DNA of 64,000 nucleotides. Source: Candidatus Omnitrophota bacterium (GTDB lineage: Bacteria > Omnitrophota > Gorgyraeia > B26-G9 > JBDRCZ01). A program made the translations under genes and the position numbers. The notes under the pieces are model-generated. The model was not told the DNA's origin. It did not search any database and saw only the letters and a list, made by a program, of their open reading frames with translations. The stretch lies in contig JBDRCZ010000073.1 in NCBI GenBank assembly GCA_043821285.1, positions 3,564 to 67,563 on the forward strand, read 5' to 3'. This document shows positions 10,672-30,880 of this stretch, piece after piece. Position 1 is the stretch's first letter; each line of letters opens with the position of its first letter.

Positions 10672-10699
10672 TCCAAAATATTAAAAATCCGGGTTTGGT

Positions 10700-11425
10700 A
10701 TGAACGTTAATTATTTATACGATCAGTTAAAAACCGCACTGCGGGAGCAGACAGCCGGGCAGCAATTATATCATGAAACCGTATCAATCCGCTGTAGAAC
10801 CTTAACTGCCGATCAAGCGATTGGAAACCCGGAACATCAGGATTATCCGATTATTAAAGGAAAGGAAGTTATGGTTGAGGCCGGGTTTCTTGGGGCAAAA
10901 GGCCAGGCCTTTACTGACGAATTTGAAGCCAGAGACTATACAATTACTCAGTTGATAGATATGGAACTTGATAGCAATAAAAAAAGGGCCAGTTTTATTG
11001 CCGCATTTAATGCGGTTTATCGATATCTTAATCTGTGCGAAAAAACGCTTCATTGTAAGGATAAAGAACCGGTTCAGTGTGCGGAAGAGTTGATAAATAC
11101 CATCCCGGCCGGCGCGAAAGTCCTGTTAATCGGTTATCAGCCCCGTTTTATTGAAAAACTTTCAAGTGCGTTTCAGCTCAGAACTATTGATATGGACGAG
11201 GACAATATTGGCCGGGAGAGTTTTGGGGTTATTGTTGAGCCGCCGTGCCGTACCGCGGAGGCGATAGATTGGGGTAATCTGATACTTGCCACCGGCTCGA
11301 CGATTGTCAATGGAACGATTGTGACTTTTCTAAACAGCGATAAGCCGGTATTATTTTACGGGATAACAATTTCCGGCCCGGCAAGTTTATTATCTTTAAA
11401 AAGATATTGTTTTTGCGGACATTAA
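10700..11425 (+). CDS. DUF364/DUF4213-like Rossmann-fold protein (putative metal-chelation domain)
   Basis: C-terminal Rossmann-like segment (VLLIGYQP...ATGSTIVNGT) reminiscent of the DUF364 family. Family assignment from memory only. Confidence 0.35.
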   Translation: MNVNYLYDQLKTALREQTAGQQLYHETVSIRCRTLTADQAIGNPEHQDYPIIKGKEVMVEAGFLGAKGQAFTDEFEARDYTITQLIDMELDSNKKRASFIAAFNAVYRYLNLCEKTLHCKDKEPVQCAEELINTIPAGAKVLLIGYQPRFIEKLSSAFQLRTIDMDEDNIGRESFGVIVEPPCRTAEAIDWGNLILATGSTIVNGTIVTFLNSDKPVLFYGITISGPASLLSLKRYCFCGH

Positions 11426-11449
11426 CATAAAACCGGATGAGGTGGGAAT

Positions 11450-11635
11450 ATGTTGTCAAAGGATATGATTACGGCAATAGAGGAAATGGTTTTTGAAACG
11501 GATGGACGTCGAAAATTAACCTGTGCCAGTGTGTTTAAGGTTAGTTATGAATTTAAAATACTATTAGCAGAAATTGGTAAGTATTGTAATGAGAACGGAA
11601 TTAAAATAGCGGATTGTCAATTAGGTTGTTTTTAG
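11450..11635 (+). CDS. small hypothetical protein (61 aa, four Cys)
   Basis: ORF between DUF364-like and MobB-like genes; no recognisable family. Confidence 0.3.
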   Translation: MLSKDMITAIEEMVFETDGRRKLTCASVFKVSYEFKILLAEIGKYCNENGIKIADCQLGCF

Positions 11636-11639
11636 GAGA

Positions 11640-12089
11640 ATGTCTCTCATGCGCTCCCCGAAAATCATTGTTGTTGCCGGGGCACATTCTAATATTGGTA
11701 AAACTACGCTTGCCGGTCAATTGTCTGCTCTGCTCGATAAAGCGGTTCGGGTCAAAATCGGACATCACCCGATGAAAGAGCATGGTGATAAAAATTATTA
11801 TTACGCCGGCACAACGTTTTCTGAAATTCTCGCAGATAATCAGGGATGCCGGTTTTTGATCATTGAGAGTAATCAGATACTTAAACAGATTAAACCGGAC
11901 TGTTTGATATTTTTAACCGGACCGGGAAAGACTAAGCCGTCTGCGGAAGCGGCGCTTATCGCGGCGGATATTATCAGAGGGATGTATCTTGATACTGTCC
12001 AGCAGAGACGTATTGCCGCTGTATTGGGGATAAACATGGCCGCGGTCAGAAAAATAATTGAATTATCCGGCGCCTATCTTCAAAAATAA
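11640..12089 (+). CDS. P-loop protein, MobB-like (molybdopterin-guanine dinucleotide biosynthesis adaptor family)
   Basis: Walker A VVAGAHSNIGKTTL; size and context (between fdh and modABC) consistent with MobB. Confidence 0.5.
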   Translation: MSLMRSPKIIVVAGAHSNIGKTTLAGQLSALLDKAVRVKIGHHPMKEHGDKNYYYAGTTFSEILADNQGCRFLIIESNQILKQIKPDCLIFLTGPGKTKPSAEAALIAADIIRGMYLDTVQQRRIAAVLGINMAAVRKIIELSGAYLQK

Positions 12090-12101
12090 GAAGTATGACA
12101 A

Positions 12102-12905
12102 ATGTTTAAATTTTTCTCTAAGATAGTCTTTTTCGTTGTGATAAGCACTGTGTTCATATTGTTTGTTTCTCTGATTTTTTTCGGCGATAAAACAAAGCCG
12201 GAATTTCCCCGAAAACCAACGCTAATTGTCTATGCCGGGGCCGGGCTGATGAAGCCGATGGAGGAGATTTGTCAACGGTTTGGCAAAGATAATCGGGTAG
12301 AGGTGCGGGTGAACTATGGGGGATCCGGCGAGTTGCTCGGGCAGTTGTCCATGGGGAGAACCGGCGATGTTTTTGTTCCCGGGGCGGATAAATATATTGA
12401 TGATGCGAAAAAAAATAAATGGATTATTGTACCTACTATAACCCGGCTGGTAAAACACGTTCCGGTTATTGCTGTAGGTTATGGCAATCCGCGAAAAATC
12501 AAAGGATTAGATGATCTGATGCGTCCGGAAATAACCCTGGCATTAGGCGACCCGAATGCTTGTGCGATTGGACGTTTAGCGCAGGATATTTTTATAAAGA
12601 ACGGTATTAACAGTCAAATAAAAGCAAATACAAAGGTTGTTACACCTACCGTCAATCAATTATTAATGTATCTGCTGATAAACCAGGTGGATGCGGCAGT
12701 TATCTGGGAAGATATGGTCTCATGGTCAGAAAGCCGGCAAAAACTCTCGATCGTCCGTATAAACCAGGAACAAAATATCATTAAAACAGTTTCTGCGGCG
12801 GTTATATCCGGAAGTTTGCAGCCGCGTGCTGCAGAAAAGTTAATTAAATTTATGGCCTCTGATCAAGGGTATGCGATCTGGGGAAAATGGGGATTTGGCC
12901 GATGA
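12102..12905 (+). CDS. modA: molybdate/tungstate ABC transporter substrate-binding protein (ModA/TupA/WtpA-like)
   Basis: N-terminal signal/TM segment; LIVYAGAGL...NYGGSGEL...GDVFVPGADKY resembles the ModA fold; followed by permease and ATPase genes. Confidence 0.7.
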   Translation: MFKFFSKIVFFVVISTVFILFVSLIFFGDKTKPEFPRKPTLIVYAGAGLMKPMEEICQRFGKDNRVEVRVNYGGSGELLGQLSMGRTGDVFVPGADKYIDDAKKNKWIIVPTITRLVKHVPVIAVGYGNPRKIKGLDDLMRPEITLALGDPNACAIGRLAQDIFIKNGINSQIKANTKVVTPTVNQLLMYLLINQVDAAVIWEDMVSWSESRQKLSIVRINQEQNIIKTVSAAVISGSLQPRAAEKLIKFMASDQGYAIWGKWGFGR

Positions 12906-13744
12906 GGCATACGGACATACTTAAGAACGTGCTCTTAATATTTACGCTGCTGATTGTTCTGATTATAATGGTATCTGTTGCGGCATTGTTTTTTGTACGG
13001 AATTTCTCAGGGGTGTTAGAGAATATATTCAGTCAAGAGATTAGATATTCTCTGCGGTTGTCGATTGTTACCGGATGTGTATCAACGATACTGGTGATTT
13101 GTGCGGCTGTTCCGGTTGCTTATTTATTTTCAAGATACCGGTTCCCGGGACAGCAGATTATAAAGACGGTTTTATATCTGCCAATTGCTTTCCCGGAGAT
13201 TGTGTTAGGACTTTGTCTTTTGCTCTTTTTCGGGCATCCGGCAGTAAGAGGTTTTTTGTCTGTGCTCGGGGTTGATTTTGTTTTTTCAAAGCCTGGGATT
13301 ATTGTCGCGCAGTTTTTTACGGCATTCCCTTATGCGATACGTATAATTAAAACGGTGTTCGATAGTATTGACCCCCAGCAGGAATTAGTCTCAAGAAGTC
13401 TGGGGTATTCTCAGTTAAGGACAATATTCACGATAACCTTGCCGCTGGCAAAAAACGGCATTATCGCGGCTATGGCAATCTCGTTTGCACGTTGTGTCGG
13501 TGCTTTTGGCTCGGTTTTAATTCTGGCCGGCGGAACGCGTATGTATACAGAAACCCTGCCAATCGCCCTGTATTTAAATTTATCTTATGGAAATATGGAT
13601 CTAGCGATAGCCGCAGGCCTGATGCTCGTGGTGATCGCTTTTATCGGTATTTATATTATTGAGGCAATAGAATCGCGATCAGGGGATTCAATGTTTGGAA
13701 TTGTAATAGGCAATAGTGACAAGGTACTGTCAAAAATAAAATGA
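12887..13744 (+). CDS. modB: molybdate/tungstate ABC transporter permease
   Basis: Polytopic membrane protein with an ABC permease EAA-like region, overlapping the modA stop. Confidence 0.7.
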   Translation: MGIWPMRHTDILKNVLLIFTLLIVLIIMVSVAALFFVRNFSGVLENIFSQEIRYSLRLSIVTGCVSTILVICAAVPVAYLFSRYRFPGQQIIKTVLYLPIAFPEIVLGLCLLLFFGHPAVRGFLSVLGVDFVFSKPGIIVAQFFTAFPYAIRIIKTVFDSIDPQQELVSRSLGYSQLRTIFTITLPLAKNGIIAAMAISFARCVGAFGSVLILAGGTRMYTETLPIALYLNLSYGNMDLAIAAGLMLVVIAFIGIYIIEAIESRSGDSMFGIVIGNSDKVLSKIK

Positions 13745-13747
13745 AAG

Positions 13748-13974
13748 AAACCACAGAGGGCACAGAGAGTTATTTTAAAAATAAATAAGTCATTGATACG
13801 GTAACGGTTAAGGTAACGCACTATAACTACGTATAGCGTATTGAGTATTGAGTATTGAGTATTGAGTTTTTATTGTCATCCTTTTAGTTTTTGTGCTCAA
13901 TTCTCAATACTCAATACTCAATACAAAGATGTTACCGTAACCGACAAACCTTTTTCTCTCTGGTGGCTGTGGTT
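13748..13974. repeat. MITE-like element: terminal inverted repeats AAACCACAGAGGGCACAGAGAG / CTCTCTGGTGGCTGTGGTT around a long hairpin of TATTGAG x4 and its complement
   Basis: Inserted exactly in the modB-modC intergenic region. Internal palindrome GGTAACGGTTAAGGTAACG...GTATTGAG x4...CTCAATAC x3...GTTACCGTAACCG. Related copies at 54761-54833 and 62487-62836. Confidence 0.6.
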
Positions 13975-14014
13975 AATTATTTGACAGAACCATATTATAC
14001 GAGGAGAGGAGGAG

Positions 14015-15121
14015 ATGAATAAAGTCTCCGGGCATATCTTAGTAAAAGACCTTTATTTAACACTGGGTAATTTTTGCCTTAAGAAAATTGATCTAGAGGT
14101 AAACCCGGGCGATTACCACATGCTCCTGGGTCCTTCAGGCAGCGGGAAGTCATCTTTAATGAAATGTCTGCTCGGATTTTACCGTATTGATCGCGGCATG
14201 GTGTGGCTGGGTGCCCGGAACATAACGAATGAACGTCCTGAAAAGCGGCGAATGGGATATGTGCCGCAGAATTATGCGCTTTTTTCCCACATGAATGTGG
14301 AAGAGAATATTCGATACGGAATGAAAGCGGCTAATTTGACAAATCACCAAGCCGCGCAGTATCTTAATCGGCTGCTGGGTATCATGGGCATTGAGAATTT
14401 GCGGTTACGGGAAGTAGATTATTTGTCCGGAGGAGAAAAACAAAAAGTCGCGCTTGGCCGGGCCCTGGGCATGAAGCCGGAAACGATTTTGCTTGATGAA
14501 CCCTTTTCTGCGATTGATGAGGACAGTAAACGCCGATTGTGGTTTGAGCTCAAGCAGGTGATTAATGAGGTTGGTGTGACGACCTTACACATAACCCATA
14601 ATCTTGAAGAGGCTGAAACGCTCGGGGACCGATTGACGCTGTTAATCAATGGAGAAATTGTCCAAAGCGGGAAACGGGAGGAATTGTTTGAACATCCGGT
14701 AAATGAACGTGTTGCCCGGTATTTGAATTACCGGAATATTTTTTATGGGGTAATAAGGGATTACGATGATCACCAAATGTTTGTTTCTGAACATTTCTCT
14801 GTTTCATTAAACCGGAAGTTCCCAAGTAACATACCGGTGACGTTATGTATTCGCCAGCAGGATATAAAGATCGTCAGAGACAATGTTCCGCTTAAGGAAG
14901 AACTATCCGGCACGGTCTTCTCAGGAGAGATTGTAGAATTATTTCAACTTTCAGAATATAGTTTGATGTGGTTTAAGATTGACACCAGCCCCAATAAATA
15001 CGACTTTGAAGTAAAATTTCCGAGCTTTATTGATAAACGGCTGGCGCTTTTTACCGGCAAGCGGATTAAGGTTGCCTTTTGGGAATCAAGGGTTATTATT
15101 TTTGAAAACGAAAGGAGATAG
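14015..15121 (+). CDS. modC: molybdate/tungstate ABC transporter ATP-binding protein with C-terminal TOBE-like domain
   Basis: Walker A GPSGSGKSS, signature LSGGEKQKV, Walker B LLDEP; about 130 aa C-terminal extension typical of ModC/TOBE. Confidence 0.8.
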   Translation: MNKVSGHILVKDLYLTLGNFCLKKIDLEVNPGDYHMLLGPSGSGKSSLMKCLLGFYRIDRGMVWLGARNITNERPEKRRMGYVPQNYALFSHMNVEENIRYGMKAANLTNHQAAQYLNRLLGIMGIENLRLREVDYLSGGEKQKVALGRALGMKPETILLDEPFSAIDEDSKRRLWFELKQVINEVGVTTLHITHNLEEAETLGDRLTLLINGEIVQSGKREELFEHPVNERVARYLNYRNIFYGVIRDYDDHQMFVSEHFSVSLNRKFPSNIPVTLCIRQQDIKIVRDNVPLKEELSGTVFSGEIVELFQLSEYSLMWFKIDTSPNKYDFEVKFPSFIDKRLALFTGKRIKVAFWESRVIIFENERR

Positions 15122-15123
15122 CA

Positions 15124-16392
15124 ATGAATACTGATTATGAAGTGATGTGGAACGATTTGGGACTTGATATAGATAAGCACAATTTTCTTTTAGATTTTCT
15201 TGGAAATGCGTATAAGGACGTGTTTTTAAACCAGGCATACAGGCCTAAGGGGATGGAGTATCTTGATTTTGTTGTTTCCGAAGCGCACGGATTAAGGATA
15301 AAAGAGCTTGTTGACGCAAAAAAAGACGGAAGGAAGGTGATAGGTGTTTTCTGTTTGTATGTGCCCGAAGAAATAATCGTTGCTTTAAACGGTATATGCG
15401 TAGGACTTTGCGGCGGCGCTGATTTCGAGCCGGAATCCGTACAGGCACGGCTGGGCAGCAGGAATATATGTCCGCTTATCCAGTCTTTTATGGGGTTTAA
15501 GCTTGGAAAAGTATGCCCTTTCTTTGAAGTTGCGGACATTCTTGTAGGCGAGACGACATGTGACGGCAAGAAAAAAGTTTATGAGAGCCTTAATGATATA
15601 CAGAATACATATACCGTATGTATGCCCCCTAGATGCGATGATGCGGGTAAGGTTTATTTTAAAGGAGAACTGTTGAAACTTGTTGCTAAATTAGAAGAAA
15701 TCACAGGGAATAAACTTACAGCGGAAAACCTTGCAAAGGGGATAGAAAAAGTTAATACAAAAAGAAAAGCGCTTGAAAGGCTGTACTCTTTAAGGAAACA
15801 GAGAAATGTCCCACTATCCGGACTTGATACGCTTTTAATAAGTCAAATCGCTTTTTATGAAGATATTGACCGGTTTATCGCAAAAATAAATGAGCTTTGT
15901 GATGAGCTTGAATCTACCCGGGAAGGTATTAAAGGGTCTGAACACATGAAAAGAATAATGGTTACAGGCACGCCAATGGCTTTCCCGAATTGGAAGATTC
16001 ACCACCTTGTTGAGTCAACAGGTAATGCCCTGGTTGTGTGCGAGGAAGCATGTACCGGGACAAGATATTTTGAGAAAATTTTTGCATCAGCCAATGACCT
16101 TGAAAAAGATATGGAGGTTATCCTTGAGCATTACTCTAATATCCATTGTGCATGTTTTACGCCAAATGAAGAACGTGTGGAAGATATACTTCGTCTTGTT
16201 GAGGAATATAAAGTGGATGGTGTAATAGTCAATAACCTGACATTCTGTACAAATTATGCGGTTGAACATGCTAAAGTAGAAAAGACACTCAAAGAAAAAG
16301 GCGTATCCGTATTAAAGATAGAAACAGACTATTCAAACTCAGACGCAGAAAGTTTAAAAATAAGAGTAGAAGCTTTTATAGAAATGATTTAA
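15124..16392 (+). CDS. 2-hydroxyacyl-CoA dehydratase / benzoyl-CoA reductase subunit family protein (HgdB/BcrB/BadD-like, Cys-rich)
   Basis: 422 aa with multiple conserved Cys; immediately followed by the cognate activator ATPase. Confidence 0.65.
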   Translation: MNTDYEVMWNDLGLDIDKHNFLLDFLGNAYKDVFLNQAYRPKGMEYLDFVVSEAHGLRIKELVDAKKDGRKVIGVFCLYVPEEIIVALNGICVGLCGGADFEPESVQARLGSRNICPLIQSFMGFKLGKVCPFFEVADILVGETTCDGKKKVYESLNDIQNTYTVCMPPRCDDAGKVYFKGELLKLVAKLEEITGNKLTAENLAKGIEKVNTKRKALERLYSLRKQRNVPLSGLDTLLISQIAFYEDIDRFIAKINELCDELESTREGIKGSEHMKRIMVTGTPMAFPNWKIHHLVESTGNALVVCEEACTGTRYFEKIFASANDLEKDMEVILEHYSNIHCACFTPNEERVEDILRLVEEYKVDGVIVNNLTFCTNYAVEHAKVEKTLKEKGVSVLKIETDYSNSDAESLKIRVEAFIEMI

Positions 16393-16403
16393 AGAGCTTA
16401 AAA

Positions 16404-17213
16404 ATGAAAAAATATTTAGGTATAGATGCGGGATCGCGTTTTCTAAAATACGTTATTTTAGATACTGAAACAATTATAGACAGCGGAGTTGTCTCATCCG
16501 GTAATATAGATAAGACTTTATTTTCTAATCTTGTTGAGAATGTGGAAGGAATAGGTCTGACAGGATACGGAAGGTCGATGTTCCTGGAATTTTTACAGCA
16601 TTTTTCTGCAAAGAAAATCACCGAAATAAAGGCAGCAGCCTGCGGATTAAAATATCTTGGACAAAAAGCAGCAACTGTTATAGATATAGGAGGGCAAGAT
16701 ACAAAAATAATATATCTGGATGATGAATATTCCATAAAAGATTTTACAATGAACGATAAATGCGCGGCAGGGACAGGAAAATTTATTGAAATGGTCTTAA
16801 AAACCCTTGATTTGAACTTGGAACAGGCAAGGGATATTGACTGGGGCGGGGGAACAGACGTAAAGATAAACTCAACATGCGCAGTTTTTGCTGAGACAGA
16901 AATAATACAGCATTTATATGCCGGGGTTAAGCGGTTAGATATTTTTACGGCTGTTTTAAAAAGTATTGCTTCCAGAGTGATCATTCCTAACAGGTATATG
17001 ATTTCGGAACCTGTTGTGCTTTCCGGCGGTACAGCGTATTTCAAATCTTTACAAGATTGGCTTAAGGTAATATTAAAGACGGATATAGTAGTGCCGGAGA
17101 AATTCTGGTTTGTCAATGCAATAGGTGCAGCTAATTATGCATTGGAGTTTACTCAACAAGTCAAATATAGAGAGGAGGGAACTGGTGTTCCGGCTGGTCT
17201 TCAAAACCAGTAG
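16404..17213 (+). CDS. BadF/BadG/BcrA/BcrD-type ATPase, activator of 2-hydroxyacyl-CoA dehydratase (HgdC-like)
   Basis: GIDAGSRFLK...DIGGQDTKII...MNDKCAAGTGKF...STCAVFAETE closely matches the HgdC/CoA-substrate-specific enzyme activase family. The 3' 45 nt overlap tRNA-Sec. Confidence 0.85.
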   Translation: MKKYLGIDAGSRFLKYVILDTETIIDSGVVSSGNIDKTLFSNLVENVEGIGLTGYGRSMFLEFLQHFSAKKITEIKAAACGLKYLGQKAATVIDIGGQDTKIIYLDDEYSIKDFTMNDKCAAGTGKFIEMVLKTLDLNLEQARDIDWGGGTDVKINSTCAVFAETEIIQHLYAGVKRLDIFTAVLKSIASRVIIPNRYMISEPVVLSGGTAYFKSLQDWLKVILKTDIVVPEKFWFVNAIGAANYALEFTQQVKYREEGTGVPAGLQNQ

Positions 17214-17263
17214 CAGGCGGATAATACCGTCTGTGGCAGGTTCGATTCCTGCTCTCTCTGCCA
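17169..17263 (+). tRNA. selC: tRNA-Sec (anticodon UCA)
   Basis: 95 nt. 8-bp acceptor (AGAGAGGA / CTCTCTCT) + G discriminator + CCA. 6-bp D stem with 4-nt loop. 6-bp anticodon stem with loop CTTCAAA (UCA at 17201-17203). Long variable arm (CAGGCGG-ATAATA-CCGTCTG). T arm GCAGG-TTCGATT-CCTGC. Lies directly upstream of selA-selB. Confidence 0.85.
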
Positions 17264-17318
17264 ATTTGGATTTAGACTAAGGAATATTAAAAGAAAGAAT
17301 CTTGGCGCTCTTTGCGTC

Positions 17319-18731
17319 TTGGCGGGAAAAATGAATAAAAAAAACAATCAGTTACGCCGGCTTCCCGGGGTTGACGCGGTGCTGAATGAACCGGGCATAA
17401 AAAAGCTGATCACCGAATATGGCCGGGATATGGCGGTTTATTCTGCGCGTAAGGTAATCAGCGCTATGCGGGAAGAAATTAAATCCGGCGGGCTTGATTT
17501 TCAAAAAGATATATTATTCAACCGGATTAATGATACTGTTTACAAAATTGCGCGTGATCGGTTTAAACCGGTTATTAATGCAACCGGCATTCTGATTCAT
17601 ACTAATCTTGGCCGTGCCCCCCTGGGTGAGTACGCGGCCGCGGAGCTGGAAAAGACAATAGCCGGTTATACGAATCTGGAGTTTGATCTTGCCACGGGCC
17701 GCCGCGGACGGCGAAACGATTTGATTGCTCCGCTTATTAATTTTTTAACCGGGGCAGAAGACTCGCTTGTGGTAAATAACAATGCTGCGGCGCTGCTAAT
17801 TATTCTGCATACTTTTGCCCGCGGTAAAGAGGTTATTGTTTCGCGGGGCGAACTTGTGGAAATCGGTGATTCCTTCCGTATTCCCGATATGTTACGCGCG
17901 GCCGGGGCAAAGATGGTTGAGGTTGGCACGACGAATAGAACGCGCCTGTGTGATTATGAAAAGGCATTGACACCCAGGACCGCACTCATTTTAAAAGTAC
18001 ATAAGTCTAATTACGCGATTACGGGGTTTACCGAAGAAGTTTCGGTTAAAGATCTTTCCGGGTTTTCCCATAAACAGGCAATCCCTTTTGTATACGATAT
18101 CGGGTCGGGCCTGTTACGCAAACCAAAAGGCTTTACCCTTGAGAATGAGCCTGAGGTAAAAGGTGCAATTGGTCACGGCGCGGACATGGTGACGTTTAGC
18201 GGGGATAAACTGATTGGCGGGCCGCAGGCAGGAATCATTACCGGCAGAAAAGATTTAATCCGCCGCATTGCGCGCGCGCCGATGATGCGGGCACTGCGGG
18301 TAGGAAAACTCACCCTGGCCGCGCTTATTGTTACCTGCAGGCAGTATCTGAATGACAAAGAGCGCAAAAGTAAGACACCGTTATTTACCCTGCTTGAGCG
18401 CAGTAAAAGGCAGAGAAAAGAAATGGCCGTAAACCTTATGGAGGAGTTGAGGAAACAGAACATTGCCGCAACCATGGTAAAAAACAAAGGGTGCTGCGGC
18501 GGCGGTACTCTGCCGGAACTGTACATTGACAGTTTTGCCGTTTGTCTTAACTTCCCGTACCAAAACAATAAAGAACGTGTGCATGCTGCGGAAAAAACAT
18601 TTCGCGAACTTTTACGCATAGATAAACCGATTATCGCTATTTTACGTAAAGGTGAAATTCTTTTCGATGTGCTTGCCCTTTTGCCGCAGGATATACCGTA
18701 TATTGCCGAGCAAGCTGCCAAAACAAGATAA
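17319..18731 (+). CDS. selA: L-seryl-tRNA(Sec) selenium transferase
   Basis: KPVINATGILIHTNLGRAPL...NNNAAALLIILHTFARGKEVIVSRGELVEIGDSFRIPD...FSGDKLIGGPQAGII aligns along its length with E. coli SelA. Confidence 0.93.
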   Translation: MAGKMNKKNNQLRRLPGVDAVLNEPGIKKLITEYGRDMAVYSARKVISAMREEIKSGGLDFQKDILFNRINDTVYKIARDRFKPVINATGILIHTNLGRAPLGEYAAAELEKTIAGYTNLEFDLATGRRGRRNDLIAPLINFLTGAEDSLVVNNNAAALLIILHTFARGKEVIVSRGELVEIGDSFRIPDMLRAAGAKMVEVGTTNRTRLCDYEKALTPRTALILKVHKSNYAITGFTEEVSVKDLSGFSHKQAIPFVYDIGSGLLRKPKGFTLENEPEVKGAIGHGADMVTFSGDKLIGGPQAGIITGRKDLIRRIARAPMMRALRVGKLTLAALIVTCRQYLNDKERKSKTPLFTLLERSKRQRKEMAVNLMEELRKQNIAATMVKNKGCCGGGTLPELYIDSFAVCLNFPYQNNKERVHAAEKTFRELLRIDKPIIAILRKGEILFDVLALLPQDIPYIAEQAAKTR

Positions 18732-18740
18732 GGTTATGTT

Positions 18741-20681
18741 ATGAAACATTTGATTATGGGTACTGCCGGGCATGTTGACCATGGCAAAACCGCGCTGATA
18801 AAAATGCTTACCGGCATTGATTGTGATACCCATCCGGAAGAAAAGCGCCGCGGGATAACCATGAATTTAGGGTTTGCCTATTATGACCTTCCGGACTCCT
18901 CCCGGCTGGGGATTGTTGATGTTCCCGGTCACAGAAATTTTGTGCATACCATGGCCGCCGGCGCAAGCGGTATTGATTTTTTCCTATTAGTCATTGCCGC
19001 AGACAGCGGGATTATGCCTCAGACGCGGGAGCACGTGAAAATAATAGAGATGTTCGGGATTAAAAAGGGGATTATCGTGCTGAACAAGATTGACCTTATT
19101 GACGATGAATTGCGGGAGTTAAATCAGGAAGAGATCCGTGATTATTTTAAAGATACGTTGTTTGCCGGCCTTCCGGTAACCGGGGTCTCGGCAAAGACCG
19201 GAGCGGGGAAGGAAGATTTGCAGCAGGCTATTTTTAATCTCGCGCAAAGTGTCGATGAAAAAGTGATTGAAAAAATCTTCCGGATGTACATTGACCGTAT
19301 TTTTATTGTTGAAGGCTTCGGTACGGTAGTAACCGGCACGGTATTAGGCGGCCGGCTCTCGCCGGGGGATAGGGTTTATCTTTTACCATCGGAGAAAGAG
19401 CTTCGCATCCGGCGGATAGAGCATCACGGCCGGGAAGTTCAAGAGATCCGCGCCGGCGACAGAGCAGCCATAAACCTTGTGGGCTTAGACCGCAGCGATT
19501 TTAGCCGCGGCATGCTTATTTCCGACAGGATACTGGAACCGTCGACGATGATTGACGTGTACTGTTCTGTTTTTGATCAGGTTACCGGCCTTAATGTATG
19601 GACATCGGCTTTATTTCACTGCGGGACGAATGAAATACAATGCCGGGTGCATTTACTTGATTGCGACCGGCTAATGCCCAAAGAACAGGCGGTTGCGCAG
19701 ATCGTACTTTCAAAGCCGGCAGTTATCTTAAACAATGACCGTTTTATATTAAGGAATACCTCCTCTGACGCGACAATCGGCGGGGGAACGGTTATTGACG
19801 CGCATCCGCTGCATCACCGGCGCCGGACGCAAAGGATGGTCGAAGAAGTTAAGAAAAGGATTGACAGCAATCTGCCGGAGCTGATTTTCTCGGAAGTACG
19901 CAAGCGCTACCGGGTTGTTTCAGATAAAGAAATTGCAGACGTATTAAACCTCCCCGCGGACCAGGTACTGGAGGTAGTTCAGAAAGAGACAGCGGATGAT
20001 ATAGTTGTGTGCATTGATAATAATGAAGCGGTACTGCTGCTGCGAAACGAATATAAGAGAATGAAAGGCCGGGTGCTTAAACGCCTTGAGGTTTTCCATA
20101 ACAATAATCCCTATGATGAGCGAGGAATGACGTTTGAAGCGTTCATAAGTGTTTTTGGATTTCAGGCAGAGGCGGCCGGAGAAATGTTTATGAAATGTCT
20201 GTTAGCGTCATTAGAAAAAAACAACAGCATAAAAAAGGCCGGTAATACCTGGGCGCTTAACAGCCATACGGTTACAATTGAGGCAGGCATGGAGCAGGAC
20301 ATCGCGTGCATAGAAAATTATCTAAAAAACTCAGGGCTTAGAACGCCGCTTATCTCGGAAATAATTCCCTATGCCAAGGCAAAACGCGCTATTCATGAAA
20401 AGAAACTTCGTCAGATCCTGCATTATTTAGCAAGCCGGGCTAAAATATATGAGATTGAAGGCAATTTTATTCATGCCTCAGTCGTGGATGCGTGCCGGGC
20501 AAAACTGTTAAACAGCCTGAAGGATAAATCCGGAGGCATAACCGTTGCGCAATTCAGGGATATTATTAAAGGAAACCGTAAAATGTGTCTTTTGCTGCTT
20601 GGCCAATATGATGCTGAAGAAATTATCGTACGACAGGGGGATGTGCGGGTTTTGACCGAAAAGGGCGCAGGGTACGTGTAG
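18741..20681 (+). CDS. selB: selenocysteine-specific translation elongation factor
   Basis: GTPase motifs [17 protein letters not shown] followed by about 400 aa of winged-helix mRNA-binding extension; adjacent to selA. Confidence 0.93.
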
Positions 20682-20884
20682 ATAATAAGGTTCTTTCTTG
20701 GCTGGGCTGCAAGATGTAACCTATTGGAGAGTAAAAATAAAAGACGACGCCACGGATTTTCACAGATTGAACACTGATAAAAAATGAGGTTAAAAAATAG
20801 ATCTTCCGTGTATGAATATACCCTGTCTCTTGCTGTAGTGTATATTCATTACGAATGAACCTAATAAGGGAATAGGGTGCTGCT

Positions 20885-21973
20885 ATGAAAATCAGCAGAA
20901 ATATTTTTGCCAAACAATCGGGCGTTATCGCAGCCGGCGCAGTTATCGGGATTCTGGCGGTATTATTACAGAAATTCGGTAATCCGGGAAATATGGGAAT
21001 TTGTGTGGCGTGTTTTACCCGCGATATTGCCGGGTCATTAGGACTGCACCGCACGGCTGCGGTACAGTATCTGCGTCCGGAAATTTTTGGGATTATATTA
21101 GGTGCTTTTATTACCGCACTGATATTTAGCGAGTTTAAGCCGCGGGCAGGAACTTCTTCCATGATAAAGTTTTTTTTAGGCGCGTTTGCCATGATCGGCG
21201 CGCTGGTTTTTCTTGGCTGCCCGTGGCGGCTTTCGCTTCGCCTTGCAGCCGGTGACGGCCAGGCGCTGTTTGGGTTAGCGGGGTTGGTTAGCGGTATTTG
21301 GGCGGGTACGCGTTTTTTTGCTTTTGGATATAACCCCGGTACCTGGAGCAAAGCAAAGCCTTCTACCGGACTTTTGCTGCCTTTTTTTATCACAGGAATT
21401 TTGATTTTAAGCTTTGTATATCCGCCATTAAAAGAACAGGCCAAAAACGGTCTATTTTTCTACAGCATTGCCGGACCGGGAAGTATGCATGCGCCAATAT
21501 TAGTATCGCTTATTTTCGGAATGATTATCGGTTTTTTTCTTCAGCGCAGCCGGTTTTGCACGATCGGAGGGATACGTGATTTTCTCCTGTTTAAACAAAC
21601 CCATTTGTTAACCGGAGTAATCAGCCTGATAATATTTGCTTTTATCATGAATATTGTATTTGGATATTTTAAACCCGGGTTTATAAATCAACCCATAGCA
21701 CATTCAGAGGTAATATGGAACTTTTTAGGGATGATGCTTGCGGGCTTATCTTTTACGCTCGCGGGCGGCTGCCCGGGAAGACAGCTTGTTTTAGCCGGTG
21801 AAGGCGACGGTGATGCAGGGGTATTCTTTTTAGGTATGCTTAGCGGGGCAGGATACGCGCATAATTTTATGCTCGCGGCCACACCGCAAGGAGTCAGTCT
21901 AAACGGAAAGATTGCAGTGATTACCGGGTTGATAATCGTGCCGTTAATTGCCTGGGGTATGCGGGAAGAGTGA
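20885..21973 (+). CDS. yedE: YedE/YeeE family membrane protein (putative selenium/thiosulfate transporter)
   Basis: 362 aa polytopic membrane protein with the YedE family features (GNMGICVAC... and repeated halves); followed by a TusA-like yedF. Confidence 0.8.
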   Translation: MKISRNIFAKQSGVIAAGAVIGILAVLLQKFGNPGNMGICVACFTRDIAGSLGLHRTAAVQYLRPEIFGIILGAFITALIFSEFKPRAGTSSMIKFFLGAFAMIGALVFLGCPWRLSLRLAAGDGQALFGLAGLVSGIWAGTRFFAFGYNPGTWSKAKPSTGLLLPFFITGILILSFVYPPLKEQAKNGLFFYSIAGPGSMHAPILVSLIFGMIIGFFLQRSRFCTIGGIRDFLLFKQTHLLTGVISLIIFAFIMNIVFGYFKPGFINQPIAHSEVIWNFLGMMLAGLSFTLAGGCPGRQLVLAGEGDGDAGVFFLGMLSGAGYAHNFMLAATPQGVSLNGKIAVITGLIIVPLIAWGMREE

Positions 21974-22015
21974 GCGGCTAAGGGAATTTATTTGTTATGA
22001 ATATCGGAGGTTGGG

Positions 22016-22237
22016 ATGCGTGAAACTGTTGATGCCCGCGGTTTTTTATGTCCGCAGCCGTTAATGATGCTGGTTAAAAAAATGAAAGAAATCCCAAACG
22101 GGTCTTTTGACATTTTAATTAATGACGAGACCGCGAAAGAAAACGTATGCCGGACCATCACCGGCCGGGGCGGGAAGATCGGTGGTATCGTTAATGCTGG
22201 TGAGTATTATCGGATTTCTGTTTTGAGCGGGGAATAG
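22016..22237 (+). CDS. yedF: TusA/YedF-like sulfur/selenium carrier protein (CPxP motif)
   Basis: 73 aa, GFLCPQP = CPxP active-site motif of the TusA/SirA family. Confidence 0.75.
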   Translation: MRETVDARGFLCPQPLMMLVKKMKEIPNGSFDILINDETAKENVCRTITGRGGKIGGIVNAGEYYRISVLSGE

Positions 22238-22241
22238 GAAC

Positions 22242-23408
22242 ATGGTTTTTAACACAAAGCATAGTATTATTTATGCGGATAACGCGGCAACAACATGGCC
22301 AAAACCGCAGTGCGTCATTGGAGCCATGCGGAATTTCTTTTTTAATGTTGGGGCAAGTCCCGGCCGGTCCGGGCACCGTATGTCGCTTAATTCCGCACAA
22401 ATACTTTTTGCCGCGCGGGAGGAGATTGCTGATTTTTTCGGGCTTAATAATTCCCAGAACGTTATTTTTACTCTAAACGCGACGTATGCCCTGAATATTG
22501 CGATTAAAGGGATACTCAAAAAAGGGGCACATGTGATTGTCTCGTCTTTTGAGCATAATTCAGTTATCCGGCCGCTGACTTATCTTAAAGAGCGGGAAAA
22601 AATATCGATTACCCGCATTCCGCAAGATTCCAGACGGCAGTTTGCGCTAAAAGCGTTTGAACAATCTTTCCGGGCAAACACACAGCTTGTTATAATAAAT
22701 CATGCCTCAAACGTGACCGGCGCAATTATGCCGGTAAAAAAGATTGGACAAATATGCAAAAAGAAGAAGGTCCCGTTATTAGTCGATGCCGCGCAAACCG
22801 CCGGGGCAATCCCGATTAACGTAAAAGATGAGGCAATTGATCTGCTCGCGTTTACCGGGCATAAAAGCCTTATGGGTCCGCAGGGGACCGGCGGGCTCTG
22901 CATAGCCGGCTGCCAGCCCCAGACACTTTTTCACGGAGGCACGGGAAGCTATTCAGAGCAAGAATCCCATCCGGATTTTATGCCGGATAGATTAGAGGCC
23001 GGTACGCCGAATATCATCGGGATTGCCGGATTACGCGCGGGCATACAGTACCTCAAAGATACGGGTATTGATACAATCGTTAAAAAAGAGCGGCTTCTTG
23101 CGGAAAAATTAGTTAATGGTCTGCGTGCCTGCAAGAATGTTATGGTTTGTGGAACGGATACTTTGGAAGAGCGGCTGCCGATATTATCTTTTAATATAAA
23201 AGGTAAGCGAGCCGATGAAGTGGGTGTCCGGTTAGACAAAGAGTTTAATATCATGACGCGTGTGGGGCTTCATTGCGCGCCTGCGGCGCATAAAGCAATA
23301 GGCACGTTTCCTCACGGTACAGTAAGAATAAGCCTGAGTTTTATGAATACTGAGGACAGCGCGGACCGGATCATCTCAGCGGTACGGACAATTGCAGAAA
23401 GAGCATGA
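22242..23408 (+). CDS. cysteine desulfurase / selenocysteine lyase-like aminotransferase class V
   Basis: NifS/CsdA-like; SFEHNSV, TGHKSLMGPQGTGGL (PLP-Lys region), catalytic Cys region; located in the selenium cluster. Confidence 0.8.
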   Translation: MVFNTKHSIIYADNAATTWPKPQCVIGAMRNFFFNVGASPGRSGHRMSLNSAQILFAAREEIADFFGLNNSQNVIFTLNATYALNIAIKGILKKGAHVIVSSFEHNSVIRPLTYLKEREKISITRIPQDSRRQFALKAFEQSFRANTQLVIINHASNVTGAIMPVKKIGQICKKKKVPLLVDAAQTAGAIPINVKDEAIDLLAFTGHKSLMGPQGTGGLCIAGCQPQTLFHGGTGSYSEQESHPDFMPDRLEAGTPNIIGIAGLRAGIQYLKDTGIDTIVKKERLLAEKLVNGLRACKNVMVCGTDTLEERLPILSFNIKGKRADEVGVRLDKEFNIMTRVGLHCAPAAHKAIGTFPHGTVRISLSFMNTEDSADRIISAVRTIAERA

Positions 23409-23608
23409 TAATTCTTGTATTTGAGTCAACGTATTTTCTCATGCGTGCCCAGAAAAGTTTAATGCAGCGCAATATCAGGCATGAGGTTATTCCTACACCC
23501 CGGGATATCTCTTCAGATTGCGGCATGGCAATCAGAGTAGATGCTGACGTAAAAGAGAGCGCAATAGAGACATTACGTAAGGCAAACGTTAAGGTTATGA
23601 TGAAATAA
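23405..23608 (+). CDS. DUF3343-like small protein (putative Se/S carrier associated with selD/cysteine desulfurase)
   Basis: 67 aa; sits between the cysteine desulfurase and selD, a position and size typical of DUF3343. Family recalled, not searched. Confidence 0.45.
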   Translation: MIILVFESTYFLMRAQKSLMQRNIRHEVIPTPRDISSDCGMAIRVDADVKESAIETLRKANVKVMMK

Positions 23609-23621
23609 AAGAGAGTATACT

Positions 23622-24665
23622 ATGGACGTTGATTTGCTTGCGACAATTGAGAGCGGAGGATGCTCCGCGAAGATATCCGCGCAGGCCCTGCGCGAGGCCC
23701 TGCGTGGTCTGCCTAAGATTACTGATGAACGGCTGCTCGTTAACATTGACACACACGATGATGCCGGCGTATATAAACTCACCGAAGATATTGCACTTAT
23801 TCATACCACTGATTTTTTCCCGCCGGTTTGTTCAGAGCCGTATGAATTCGGACAGATCGCCGCGGCTAATTCCTTAAGTGATGTATATGCTATGGGCGGA
23901 AAAGCAATCTCCGCGCTTAACCTGGTAATGTTCCCGTCAAAAAAGATGTCACTTGAAGTTTTAAAGGAAATACTGCGCGGCGGCAGTGATATGCTCCAGC
24001 AGGCGGATGCAGTAATCGCCGGCGGGCATACGATTGATGATGACCCTTTAAAATACGGTCTTGCGGTTACCGGCATCGTACATCCTGAAAGAATAATAAC
24101 AAATACTGCGGCACAGCATGGCGATATACTTGTACTTACAAAACCTCTGGGGGTTGGGATTATTATTAGCGCTAGGAAACTGAACATAGTTAGTGACGAA
24201 CACTATGATGTTGCATTAAATACCATGAAACAGCTCAATGCAAAAGGCGCGCAAATCATGCAGCAGTTCAATGTAAAAGGAGCAACCGATATTACCGGCT
24301 TCGGCCTGCTCGGGCATGCCTTAAAGATGGCTTATGCGAGCAGAGTGACCATGGAAATTCATGCGGATAAACTTCCTTTTTTACCGGGCGCTTACGAACT
24401 TGCCGAGCGCGGATGTTTACCGTGCGGGGTGTTTAAAAACCAGCAGTTTACAGAACAGGACACAGAGATTTCAGAAGGTGTTGATTTTAATAAAATCATG
24501 ATTGCATCTGACGCACAGACTTCCGGCGGCCTGCTCATTTCAATTGCTGCGGCTAAAGCAGAGGATTTAGTATTAGCCTGTCATAAGGCCGGATATCACG
24601 AAGCCCGAATAATTGGCAAAGTAACAAACAAAAAACAAAAATTTCTCCTATTCCGGCAACAATAG
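23622..24665 (+). CDS. selD: selenophosphate synthetase (selenide, water dikinase), Cys-type
   Basis: N-terminal SGGCSAKIS (matches E. coli GAGCGCKIS, Cys not Sec); DDAGVY, TTDFF, AGGHTIDD, PLGVGII align with E. coli SelD. Confidence 0.93.
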   Translation: MDVDLLATIESGGCSAKISAQALREALRGLPKITDERLLVNIDTHDDAGVYKLTEDIALIHTTDFFPPVCSEPYEFGQIAAANSLSDVYAMGGKAISALNLVMFPSKKMSLEVLKEILRGGSDMLQQADAVIAGGHTIDDDPLKYGLAVTGIVHPERIITNTAAQHGDILVLTKPLGVGIIISARKLNIVSDEHYDVALNTMKQLNAKGAQIMQQFNVKGATDITGFGLLGHALKMAYASRVTMEIHADKLPFLPGAYELAERGCLPCGVFKNQQFTEQDTEISEGVDFNKIMIASDAQTSGGLLISIAAAKAEDLVLACHKAGYHEARIIGKVTNKKQKFLLFRQQ

Positions 24666-25235
24666 TACTTTGTCAAATTAATTTTTAGCCTGTCAGAGCA
24701 CAGGAGCAATCGAGATGACTTTTCCCGTGCAATGCGGTATTTTTTAGCTTATTATTATTTATAGACGTAGTACATACATGTCCAAATCAGCTAAAAGAAG
24801 TCAAAGCAAAGTTGAAGTTCAGATTTTGGGAGTTTAGATTTATCACAGACAATAATAGGGGACATACTATATAATTTGTCAAACCAAAATGAAGGCAATA
24901 GGAAAGTTGAGAGAAAAATTAAATATTTTAATTTAGAGTCATTGTCTCTGTTGGTTATCGTGTTAATTCAAAACGCGGTACTGAGTTCCGGATTTGGGTA
25001 ACAGAGGTATTAAAACAGCACCGTGATTGATTTTTTAATTGTTGCATTTGCGATTTTCATGGTGGTGAAAGGAATTAACAATCTGAAAAAGAAGCAGGGT
25101 TAACTTTGGGAAAGGAGGACGTCATGAAAATGAATTGGCAAGCTGTAAAGAATGTTTTTGTACTAGTCGGATGACCGGAAAAAGCAAAACATTTTCCGGG
25201 TATGAAGATACCCCGTATTTTGTGACGGGGCATCT

Positions 25236-28114: not shown

Positions 28115-29446
28115 TCAGCTTTTTAAGCCGTCGGTGCTGGCTGTGAAATTCGAATCTGATACCGTGTAAAGTTTATCAAGCGGACTTTCGGGGGCGTAGG
28201 ACATATCCCTTAACACGTGCGTGTAGACCATTGTTGTTTCAACGTTTTTATGTCCTAATAAGGATTGAATTTCTCTGATATTTACCCCATTCATTAAAAG
28301 GTGGGTGGCAAAACTGTGTCTTAGCGTATGCACGCTGGCATGTTTAACAATTCCGGCTTTTCTAACTGCCTCTCTCACTGCATTCTGTACAGCCTTTTCG
28401 CTTATATGATGGCGTCTTACTTTCCCGCCACGTGGATCAATGGACAACTTGGATGAAGGAAAAACATATTGCCAGCCCCAATCCATCGCGGCAGCAGGAT
28501 ATTTACGCATAAGCCCATCCGGCAAATATACGGCGCCGCATCCTGCCTTAATATCCTTGCGATGTATCGTTTTTACTTCCTCCAAATACTGACATAATTT
28601 TCCTTTAATACACTTTGGCAGTATAGTTGTCCGGTCTTTATCCCCTTTGCCGCTGCGAACAAATATCAGTCCAGCACCAAAATCAATATCTTTTACCCGT
28701 AAGCGTGCAAGTTCCATCAGCCGAAGACCTGAACCGTACAATAACTGTAAAATCAAGAGGTGTTTTCCCGCCATATGTCTGAATAACTCCTTAACTTCCT
28801 CAACCGTTAAAACAACCGGCAGTTTAAGTCCACGTTTGGCTCTGACCGTTTGCCCCAGGTTTTTAAGCTCCGTCCCCAGCACAAGTCTGAAAAAGAAAAG
28901 TAAGGCATTGAATGCCTGATTCTGAGTCGAAGATGAAACCCGCTGTTTTATTGCTAAATGGCTCAGGAAATCATGCACATCCCCCGATTCAAACCCACAA
29001 ACCTTAATATCCTTCTGTTTGACCTTAATAACATAATCGTAAAAACGGTTGAACCAAGCGAGGTATGAACGTTCGGTTCTATAAGAATAATGCTTTATGC
29101 GCATTGCTTCGCGCGCTTTGTTAAGCATATGGGTTTGATTCAAATGTTCTTTGCTTGCGACTTGAGGTTTGTTTGGATAAAGACCTGAAGCATCGCCTTT
29201 AAGGAAATGCCCAATATATAAACGCAGAGCTTGCTGGGCCTGCTCTAACTGCCAATCAGCAGCCTTTTCATCTGCCTTCAAGATAAGCAAAAAGCGCTCA
29301 GTGCGTAAATTCTGATGGAGGCTTTCATTGTTATTTGAAAAAGATAGAAATTTGCTTACCCAAAAGGCATAGTAAGGAACATTCTTTTCCGGGGCAAGCT
29401 TGCGGGAAAGCAAAAAATCTTGAAACTCCGGCAAAACATTGGACAT
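28115..29446 (-). CDS. intI: integron integrase IntI (tyrosine recombinase) with about 105-aa N-terminal extension; canonical 338-aa form would start at the Met at 29131
   Basis: C-terminal HTLRHSFATHLL...GHKNVETTMVYTHV catalytic region. IntI-specific additional segment (DPRGGKVRRHHISEKAVQNAVREAV). N-terminal AMRIKHYSYRTERSYLAWFNRF matches the IntI1 LRVRHYSLRTEQAYVHWVRAF box. Divergent from an attI/cassette array. Confidence 0.9.
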   Translation of the reverse strand: MSNVLPEFQDFLLSRKLAPEKNVPYYAFWVSKFLSFSNNNESLHQNLRTERFLLILKADEKAADWQLEQAQQALRLYIGHFLKGDASGLYPNKPQVASKEHLNQTHMLNKAREAMRIKHYSYRTERSYLAWFNRFYDYVIKVKQKDIKVCGFESGDVHDFLSHLAIKQRVSSSTQNQAFNALLFFFRLVLGTELKNLGQTVRAKRGLKLPVVLTVEEVKELFRHMAGKHLLILQLLYGSGLRLMELARLRVKDIDFGAGLIFVRSGKGDKDRTTILPKCIKGKLCQYLEEVKTIHRKDIKAGCGAVYLPDGLMRKYPAAAMDWGWQYVFPSSKLSIDPRGGKVRRHHISEKAVQNAVREAVRKAGIVKHASVHTLRHSFATHLLMNGVNIREIQSLLGHKNVETTMVYTHVLRDMSYAPESPLDKLYTVSDSNFTASTDGLKS

Positions 29447-29540
29447 CTTTCACCTTCTTTATGTAGAAATTTCCTAAATATATCAATATGCGTATATTAT
29501 GATATTATATAACAAATACGGATATTCGTCAAGAAGTATC

Positions 29541-29570
29541 TTGACATTTGTGCTCAAATGATGATAAAAT
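29541..29570 (+). promoter_or_regulatory. candidate cassette promoter Pc (TTGACA-N18-TAAAAT) facing the cassette array
   Basis: TTGACA 29541-29546, TAAAAT 29565-29570, located in the attI region between intI and the first cassette. Confidence 0.5.
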
Positions 29571-29633
29571 ATACAATGTTTAAGGCTGCGCAGATAATAA
29601 AAAGAAAAAAATAAGACACTTCGTCTATTTATT

Positions 29634-29640
29634 GTTAGAT
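29634..29640 (+). other. attI core recombination site GTTAGAT
   Basis: Only GTTRRRY core between Pc and the first cassette ORF; first cassette starts here. Confidence 0.45.
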
Positions 29641-29745
29641 GTGAAATATATTGATTTATAAAATGAAAAAAATATCTTTTTAGTTGTTTTTATAGCTTCA
29701 CTTTGTTGTGGAGTAAACACCGAAAATGCACACACGGAGGAAATT

Positions 29746-30192: not shown

Positions 30193-30201
30193 TAAAAGCG
30201 C

Positions 30202-30269
30202 ATCTAACTTGGCGATGAACCGAACTTGAAAAGCTGGCGCTTTTCAAGTCGGTTATCTTTATGTTATGA
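30202..30269 (+). other. attC site 1
   Basis: ATCTAAC...CGAACTTGAAAAGC/GCTTTTCAAGTCGG...GTTATGA. Confidence 0.7.
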
Positions 30270-30281
30270 GTAAATAAAAAT

Positions 30282-30878: not shown

Positions 30879-30880
30879 AC

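Follow-up and report, generated by a model that had tools for sequence, protein, structure and literature searches.

Compact loci in which the genes for selenocysteine (Sec) decoding lie together with genes for selenium delivery have been described before, as has the link between YedE, YedF, DUF3343 and Sec lyase, the first three of which were proposed as selenium genes (Lin et al. 2015, PMC5322559). In the clusters of Slackia heliotrinireducens, Coprococcus comes and Lachnospiraceae (fig. 3 and table 1 of that paper) selA, selB, selC and selD occur with genes for YedE, a SirA/TusA-like protein, a member of the Sec-lyase family and DUF3343, and a '2-hydroxyglutaryl-CoA dehydratase subunit' and an 'activase' are found in the neighbourhood. 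Here we describe a locus of the same content in a stretch of 64,000 nucleotides (nt), hereafter the window, of contig JBDRCZ010000073.1, which belongs to a metagenome-assembled genome (MAG) of Candidatus Omnitrophota. Eight components, selC, selA, selB, yedE, yedF, csd, the DUF3343 gene and selD, lie on one strand at 17169-24665, seven of them being protein-coding open reading frames (ORFs) 3' of the tRNA-Sec gene. Judged from motifs and gene order, they very probably constitute a functional Sec-decoding and selenium-supply set for an adjacent NAD(P)H-linked formate dehydrogenase which is itself predicted to contain Sec.

The locus departs from the clusters of Lin et al. in belonging to another phylum, in having its own gene order and in being joined to a block of fdhB-fdhA and molybdenum/tungsten (Mo/W) transport genes; neither a LysR_Se regulator nor a two-domain YedF was seen in the block. 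With the sel and fdhF genes of Escherichia coli it shares selC, selAB and a Cys-type selD, as well as a formate dehydrogenase gene in which a UGA is followed immediately by a hairpin that binds SelB and has a loop of the GGUC type, the hairpin of the window being a predicted one. However, in E. coli the sel genes are scattered, the tRNA-Sec has an 8/5 fold with G1-C72, and no csd or DUF3343 gene is linked to selD. The arrangement is well supported and of an already-described kind, and its genes are already so annotated in GenBank: nine consecutive proteins encoded at 15124-24665 match MFH1777475-MFH1777483 of the Ca. Omnitrophota MAG exactly, named there, in order, double-cubane reductase, activase, SelA, SelB, YedE family putative selenium transporter, TusA family, class V aminotransferase, DUF3343 and SelD.

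Sec decoding and the selenoprotein gene

A tRNA-Sec gene with a UCA anticodon directly 5' of selA and selB had been claimed in an earlier note on this DNA, and two predictors agree on it. ARAGORN calls tRNA-SeC(tca) at 17167-17263, the single tRNA of the window, and Rfam RF01852 matches 17168-17260 with 62.8 bits (gathering threshold 47), the sole Rfam family found there. The gene (selC, 17169-17263, plus strand, anticodon at 17201-17203) has a 7-bp acceptor stem, a 5-bp D stem with a 4-nt loop, a 6-bp anticodon stem, a 7-bp variable arm and a 5-bp T stem. The three proteins of the decoding machinery, all encoded on the plus strand, score above their curated cut-offs and carry the expected motifs. 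SelA (17319/17331-18731; the ORF opens with TTG at 17319, and GenBank takes the ATG at 17331) reaches 514 bits against TIGR00474 (cut-off 268), matches PF03841 and, at residues 12-51, the N-terminal domain PF12390, and has the pyridoxal phosphate (PLP) lysine motif SGDKLIGGPQAG. SelB (18741-20681) scores 353 bits against TIGR00475 (cut-off 242) and matches PF25461 and PF09107, the latter at residues 593-638; it has the GTPase motifs G1, G3 and G4 (including NKID), a beta-barrel domain and C-terminal winged helices. SelD (selenide, water dikinase; 23622-24665) scores 367 bits against TIGR00476 (cut-off 125) and 319 bits against NF002098, and is of the Cys type as shown by its GGCSAK motif. Since these profiles hold and the two tRNA predictors are in agreement, neither of the outcomes that the earlier note had named as fatal to it, a failed tRNA-Sec call or failed SelA, SelB and SelD assignments, was found.

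The fold of the tRNA is another matter, as the 8/5 structure originally assigned to it is probably wrong. The T stem (GCAGG/CCUGC) is followed by seven residues, UCUCUCU, then by G17260 (G73) and an encoded CCA, and the acceptor stem is therefore one of 7 bp counted from A17169. An eighth acceptor pair is possible solely as U17168·G17260, which would make the discriminator a C and leave the CCA incomplete. We aligned the window gene with three related genes from the fetched loci L021, L032 and L017 (L numbers here and below are locus labels). Across the four sequences 96% of cells are paired in the cloverleaf, against 39-51% with partners slid, and six pairs show compensatory changes, which are present in all five helices. 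At the candidate 1:72 pair (U17168·G17260) the same four sequences show no covariation, with U·G in three and a G×G mismatch in one, and G17260 is invariant, as expected of discriminator G73. The tRNA most likely belongs to the known 7/5 class, the unusual bacterial tRNA-Sec with a 12-bp acceptor/T helix that includes the 'Cloacimonetes type' 7+5 (Santesmasses et al. 2017, PMC5330540). With this class it shares the seven residues that separate the 5-bp T stem from a conserved G73, the CCA encoded in some members, and a position directly beside selAB, where 12-bp-helix genes have been documented (PMC5330540). It differs in that neither the acceptor stem nor the anticodon stem shows an evident bulge, and U·G at -1:73 could still yield eight pairs.

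That the entire Sec trait lies beside its only visible selenoprotein gene, as had also been proposed, is borne out. The gene for the formate dehydrogenase alpha subunit, fdhA (7880-10615, plus strand), is made up of two ORFs in one frame (7880-8932 and 8945-10615) and has an in-frame TGA at 8930-8932, inside HCART-U-HAPT and at the conserved active-site position; with the TGA replaced, the product of 911 amino acids (aa) scores 766 bits against TIGR01591 (cut-off 666). The RNA 3' of the UGA contains a hairpin resembling a selenocysteine insertion sequence (SECIS), whose loop, GGUCU, occupies +22 to +26 and which has a U at +17; in the fdhF SECIS of E. coli the nucleotides bound by SelB lie at these positions. 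The fold energy of this hairpin is no better than that of shuffled sequences (z 0.12), and the SECIS call therefore relies on the position of the motif. Elsewhere in the window a scan for Cys-near-TGA motifs gave off-frame or natural-stop matches only. TGA-split ORF pairs in one frame at 34591 (MgtC-like and lipoprotein) and 41262 (methyltransferase and heptosyltransferase) were rejected as adjoining unrelated genes, which leaves fdhA as the only credible candidate in the window.

The end of fdhA lies 6.5 kb before selC, and the gene is set in a plus-strand block which, at 6045-24665, is larger than the 17169-24665 of the earlier note. On its 5' side is a NuoE-NuoF fusion (6045-7760; PF01257, PF01512, PF10589 and NuoF/NuoE models), the putative NAD(P)H/FMN/Fe-S partner of the dehydrogenase. 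On its 3' side, all on the plus strand, are genes for a DUF364 protein (10700-11425; PF04016), a P-loop MobB-like protein (11640-12089), identified by eye only, and an ATP-binding cassette (ABC) transporter of the molybdate/tungstate type, encoded by modA (12102-12905; PF13531, TIGR01256), modB (12887-13744; PF00528, TIGR01581) and modC (14015-15121; PF00005 and a WtpC-like match). By predicted function the genes of 10700-15121 are metal-cofactor supply genes, and they complete the formate dehydrogenase super-locus. FdhD was not found in the block by Pfam and NCBIfam profile scans. The earlier left boundary excludes these Mo/W cofactor and transport genes and also a pair of genes for a double-cubane protein and its activase (15124-17213), to which we return below.

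Selenium delivery and gene order

The four genes between selB and selD, all on the plus strand, were assigned from profiles. YedE (20885-21973), a putative selenium transporter, scores 466 bits against TIGR04112 (cut-off 200) and has cysteines at positions 40, 43, 112 (GCP), 225 and 296 (GCP). It shares with the YeeE/TsuA-YeeD system of thiosulfate uptake (PMC7449682) the membrane family PF04143, conserved cysteines and a TusA-like gene directly 3'. However, whilst it lies far above the cut-off of the YedE selenium model, it falls far below those of the TsuA models (47 and 36 bits; cut-offs 400 and 645), and a selenium substrate is presumed. The TusA/SirA-like YedF that follows (22016-22237, 73 aa) scores 48 bits against PF01206 (cut-off 28.6) and has its Cys12 in CPQP. 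Against TIGR03527, the model of the two-domain YedF in which an N-terminal SirA/TusA domain is joined to a C-terminal DsrE-like domain with CGxC, it reaches 38 bits (cut-off 110); it has the TusA domain only, as in the yedF of E. coli, and in sequence it is similar to the short SirA-like protein that accompanies YedE. The idea that it is one half of a split two-domain protein, with DUF3343 as the other half, was dropped, as the second domain of TIGR03527 is DsrE-like and not DUF3343 (PMC5322559).

Csd (22242-23408) is a group II NifS-like cysteine desulfurase/selenocysteine lyase of the EF2568 (SclA) family, with 456 bits against TIGR01977 (cut-off 377), the PLP lysine Lys208 in an HK motif and the catalytic Cys345 in RVGLHCA. 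This family is reported to prefer Sec over Cys (10.1101/2020.02.07.939272), and Csd has in common with SclA (EF2568) of Enterococcus faecalis the TIGR01977 family, the group II motif RXGXHCA, the PLP lysine and a gene beside selD. The E. faecalis protein, however, serves a molybdenum hydroxylase cofactor and not Sec, and the window protein falls below the SclA-specific model NF040779 (347 bits; cut-off 525) and has Asn at the position of SclA H100. The small DUF3343/'Se_S_carrier' protein (23405-23608; PF11823, 69 bits, cut-off 25) has a single cysteine, Cys39 in SSDCG, and a search for a solved structure of a DUF3343 sequence relative found none. The names given to yedE, csd and DUF3343 in the earlier note thus stand, and that of yedF is correct for a TusA-like CPxP protein but not for a two-domain YedF.

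The gaps between the genes are of 10 nt (selA/selB), 203 nt (selB/yedE), 43 nt (yedE/yedF), 5 nt (yedF/csd), -4 nt (csd/DUF3343, the DUF3343 start overlapping the csd stop) and 14 nt (DUF3343/selD). This spacing suggests one or two transcription units, selC-selA-selB and yedE-yedF-csd-DUF3343-selD. Within the 203-nt gap, the only long one of the sel block, an inverted repeat at 20812-20849 (strand not assigned; 13-nt arms ATGAATATACCCT and AGTGTATATTCAT with a 12-nt spacer), found by repeat search, ends 36 nt 5' of the yedE start and is a possible operator or RNA hairpin; Rfam at the gathering threshold gives no known RNA or riboswitch in this gap or elsewhere in the window apart from tRNA-Sec. 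A terminator-like hairpin followed by a T run (24725-24747, plus strand), 60 nt 3' of selD, is likely to be the end of the transcription unit, although as a scan hit it is weak evidence.

The distribution of these genes was examined in 80 genome loci around relatives of YedE, the best being 60% identical and from Desulfobacterota MAGs. Of the 76 informative loci, 65 have a TusA-like gene next after yedE; csd and DUF3343 lie 3' of yedE in 19 of 61, and selD is found within 10 kb of yedE in 10 of 80. The window order yedE-yedF-csd-DUF3343-selD is repeated in L070, and in a Spirochaetes MAG (L032) fdhA, tRNA-Sec, selA, selB, selD, yedE, yedF, csd and DUF3343 occur together. The closest relatives overall, L021 and L017 (NuoEF 72% identical; SelD 64% and 56%; SelA 53% and 50%), join fdh and FdhD/MobA/FocA genes to yedE, DUF3343, selC, selA, selB and selD. 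This recurrence means that the association of the sel and selenium-delivery genes is real and conserved, though not new. The link of YedE, YedF, DUF3343 and NifS-like proteins to selenium, for which the earlier note had offered the locus as further support, stands in itself; it is already in PMC5322559, and what the locus provides is an illustration of it. In L017 a transglutaminase-like gene (4054-5061) lies between tRNA-Sec and selA, and a 'transglutaminase-like enzyme' is one of the partners that STRING gives for YedF (Lin et al. 2015, PMC5322559).

A pathway may be sketched from these parts, in which the SelD, SelA and SelB steps are the established biochemistry of their families combined with motifs, and the steps of YedE/YedF, Csd/DUF3343 and the double-cubane protein are drawn from analogy and gene context. 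YedE, predicted to be a channel of the YeeE/YedE family with ten transmembrane segments, would import a selenium species which YedF would take on its CPxP cysteine, by analogy with YeeE in thiosulfate uptake (PMC7449682). Csd, as a PLP enzyme of the SclA family, may then take selenium from free selenocysteine, or may handle bound selenium, as an enzyme perselenide, and the single-Cys DUF3343 protein may pass the selenium on. The Cys-type SelD would convert selenide and ATP to selenophosphate, and after serylation of tRNA-Sec the Ser-tRNA-Sec would be turned into Sec-tRNA-Sec by SelA. SelB·GTP would bind this Sec-tRNA-Sec together with the hairpin after UGA 8930 of fdhA, and Sec would be inserted at the Mo/W active site.

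It could instead be argued that csd, the TusA-like gene and DUF3343, possibly with yedE, make up a sulfur relay that supplies the sulfido ligand or the dithiolene of the Mo/W-bis-pyranopterin guanine dinucleotide of FdhA, and are sited here for fdhA and the Mo/W genes and not for selD. TusA affects molybdenum cofactor biosynthesis in E. coli, and the Mo/W transport, MobB-like and DUF364 genes are in the same block, though no FdhD was found there. FdhD and MobA lie directly 5' of yedE in L017, Csd is by motif a generic group II cysteine desulfurase short of the SclA-specific model, and a search of DUF3343 for a selenium-specific branch found none (Lin et al., PMC5322559). However, YedE of the TIGR04112 type is reported almost only in organisms that contain SelD (PMC5322559), the characterised member of TIGR01977 prefers selenocysteine (10.1101/2020.02.07.939272), and in the window only 14 nt separate the DUF3343 stop from the selD start. 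Above all, the csd-DUF3343 pair adjoins selD in L070, L016, L052 and L164, where no fdh is present, and because the same genes keep this company in other lineages we regard the sulfur relay as improbable and retain selenium supply as the function of the set.

The double-cubane protein and its activase

Proteins with a double-cubane [8Fe-9S] cluster (DCCPs) have solved structures and are active in vitro on acetylene, hydrazine and azide, but their physiological role is not known (PMC7317905). A connection with selenium has nevertheless been flagged from bioinformatics. In the STRING table for Slackia, dehydratase subunits and an activase are linked, without comment, to YedE, YedF and DUF3343 (Lin et al., PMC5322559). 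Haft and Gwadz found 955 of 970 DCCPs in genomes containing SelD and raised the possibilities of a role in the processing of selenium compounds or of a selenium-bridged cluster (10.1101/2022.07.06.499078), and in a later preprint the DCCP and its reductase are labelled putative selenium-metabolism genes (PMC10418091). The window holds such a pair immediately 5' of selC. The DCCP (15124-16392, plus strand) scores 429 bits against NF040772 (cut-off 350) and matches the crystallised Carboxydothermus protein over its full length (PDB 6ENO_A, E 1e-125); its cysteines C77-C375 fit a loosened form of the published seven-Cys spacing, so that the pattern is approximately present and the cluster content is predicted. 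The activase, or DCCP reductase, a BcrAD/BadFG ATPase (16404-17213, plus strand), scores 192 bits against TIGR00241 (cut-off 125). As in Carboxydothermus hydrogenoformans (6ENO, 7YYL; PMC7317905, PMC9351452), the DCCP adjoins the ATPase; the C. hydrogenoformans protein differs in that it has no assigned physiological substrate and is discussed in those two papers with no reference to selenium, whereas the window pair abuts selC.

The contact with selC is in fact an overlap. The homologous domain of the activase ends near residue 245 of 269, a length that GenBank also gives, and the ORF, having no earlier stop, continues about 45 nt into the tRNA-Sec gene to a TAG (17211-17213) just past the anticodon stem. 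A promoter-like site at 17110-17138, inside the 3' end of the activase gene, could drive selC independently. Were a read-through transcript to be processed at the 5' end of the tRNA, a non-stop activase mRNA would be left, and the overlap could thus link activase output inversely to selC maturation.

The gene context in other genomes speaks to the same question. In the WOR-3 loci L164 and L165 the order is csd-DUF3343-yedF-DCCP-DCCP-activase-DsrE-selD, with selB and a LysR regulator upstream in L165 as well, and in the Thermodesulfobacteriota ORM2a locus (L016) it is yedE-TusA-DCCP-activase-csd-YedF-DUF3343-selD. On a gut contig (L145) the DCCP and activase genes are embedded between selenium-delivery genes, and the nearest relative of the window DCCP (65% identity, in L161, locus 1-10635) lies in a LysR/DCCP-activase-YedF (TusA+DsrE) unit. 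Overall, at least one selenium gene is present in 22 of the 43 DCCP loci that are 5 kb or longer; further gene contexts of DCCP were seen in L119, L145, L156/L158 and L160. Among close metagenomic relatives with enough downstream sequence, the gene after DCCP is selD in 19 of 33 and the activase in 8 of 33, and the selD that follows DCCP in L087 encodes a genuine SelD.

In L161 the unit stands beside a molybdenum hydroxylase cluster of the xanthine dehydrogenase type (XdhC, MoCoBD, FAD_binding_5, Fer2), a context which hints that the link of DCCP may extend beyond Sec to selenium-dependent molybdenum hydroxylases. In L087 (11373-15937) the SelD belongs to the NF010705 (PRK14105) type and has a ModE-like regulator and modABC after it, and from this gene set it follows that the trio of selenium, Mo/W and double-cubane genes recurs in an order unlike that of the window.

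From these contexts we consider, at a likelihood somewhat short of even, that DCCP and its activase carry out an integral step of selenium assimilation, acting as an ATP-driven reductase of very low potential that would make selenide for SelD. The substrate may be a perselenide on Csd, YedF or DUF3343, or Se(0), or a selenotrisulfide. It is also quite conceivable, though less likely than not, that the pair are unrelated neighbours, tied to the Mo/W transporter or to some anaerobic reduction and adjacent to selC by coincidence. Distant homologues of the DCCP often follow an ABC ATPase gene (L146, L147, L150, L155, L159), modE and modABC come after the DCCP-selD clade, and the role of these proteins in the cell is as obscure as stated above (PMC7317905). 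Coincidence, however, would have to account for the embedding of the pair among selenium-delivery genes in L164/L165, L016 and L145, for its place beside a YedF gene in L161, for the selenium gene in about half of the larger DCCP loci, and for the STRING links (PMC5322559) and SelD co-occurrence (10.1101/2022.07.06.499078) already cited.

The reading of the locus as one functional set for Sec and selenium, with the DCCP pair as a member, should be considered with caution, as several observations weigh against it. The DCCP gene starts 3 nt after modC, the ABC ATPase gene, and is thus as tightly coupled to the Mo/W transporter as to the selenium genes; DCCP is present in only 2 of the 80 yedE loci, and L163 has a DCCP homologue with no selenium gene nearby. 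The 19-20 cases of DCCP followed by selD form one clade with 69-95% mutual identity, and we have therefore counted them as a single event and placed the weight on independent operons. With regard to the other components, the shortfall of Csd against the SclA model and its Asn in place of H100 have been noted, and a 12-bp acceptor/T helix is not what SelB typically recognises. Finally, neither promoter-like sites (36, against 31±5 in shuffles) nor terminator-like sites (18, against 15.5±4) are in excess across the region, and it is consequently the gene spacing from which the operon structure is read.

Surroundings of the block and significance

The block stands out in base composition, with a guanine-plus-cytosine (GC) content of 0.41-0.48 over 6-24 kb and of 0.33-0.41 in the remaining window, a difference that would fit horizontal acquisition, or just the conservation of coding sequence. 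One may therefore ask whether it is a recently acquired or shuffled island and not one functional unit, its order accidental and some of its members possibly inactive. The raised GC would agree with this, as would the gene remnants and tyrosine integrase 0.3-4.8 kb 3' of selD and the gene order that varies among the closest relatives, and horizontal transfer of whole Sec traits has been proposed (Lin et al., PMC5322559). All ORFs of the block are nevertheless intact and retain their catalytic motifs, and transfer would not in itself render the unit non-functional. In addition, fdh, sel and yedE genes are likewise associated in L017 and L021, with proteins 50-72% identical, and this points to inheritance within the lineage. 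An accidental assemblage appears unlikely, and a single functional unit remains the reading that we prefer.

Beyond selD, two gene remnants were recognised by eye at 24900-25100, a RhuM-like fragment (…VGYRVNSKRGTEFRIW…) and the C-terminus of an MscL-like channel (…DFLIVAFAIFMVVKGINNLKKKQG, followed by a stop). About 3.5 kb past selD begins an island-like region (28115-34000) in which GC drops to 0.33-0.37; it opens with a tyrosine integrase (28115-29446, minus strand), after which come DUF2703 and a series of small ORFs, HEPN and DUF5677 domains among them. Between modB and modC (13745-14014) there is a long palindrome of tandem GTATTGA heptamers, whose arms (13838-13866 and 13896-13924) are 97% complementary and which is nested inside an outer inverted repeat (13749-13768 and 13955-13974). 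Further copies of the heptamer repeat, of which none would be expected by chance, occur at 50074-50102 and 55695-55723, and the whole looks like a dispersed element of the repetitive extragenic palindrome or miniature inverted-repeat transposable element kind.

For Ca. Omnitrophota, a poorly studied phylum, the locus is a clean and complete example of a known arrangement, and it illustrates how a formate dehydrogenase may be the reason for which a genome keeps the Sec trait. What is known of YedE, YedF, DUF3343 and the NifS-like proteins is unchanged by it. With a tRNA-Sec probably of the 7/5 type and its own SelA and SelB, the set may be of use as a compact, transferable 'Sec cassette'. The DCCP/activase pair is the only element with discovery value, and even there the link to selenium had already been flagged bioinformatically in the literature. 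The window and the operons found in other genomes place the pair physically between the selenium carriers and SelD, and so turn that link into a direct biochemical question; if a step in selenium assimilation is indeed what the pair performs, it would be the first physiological role for double-cubane proteins.

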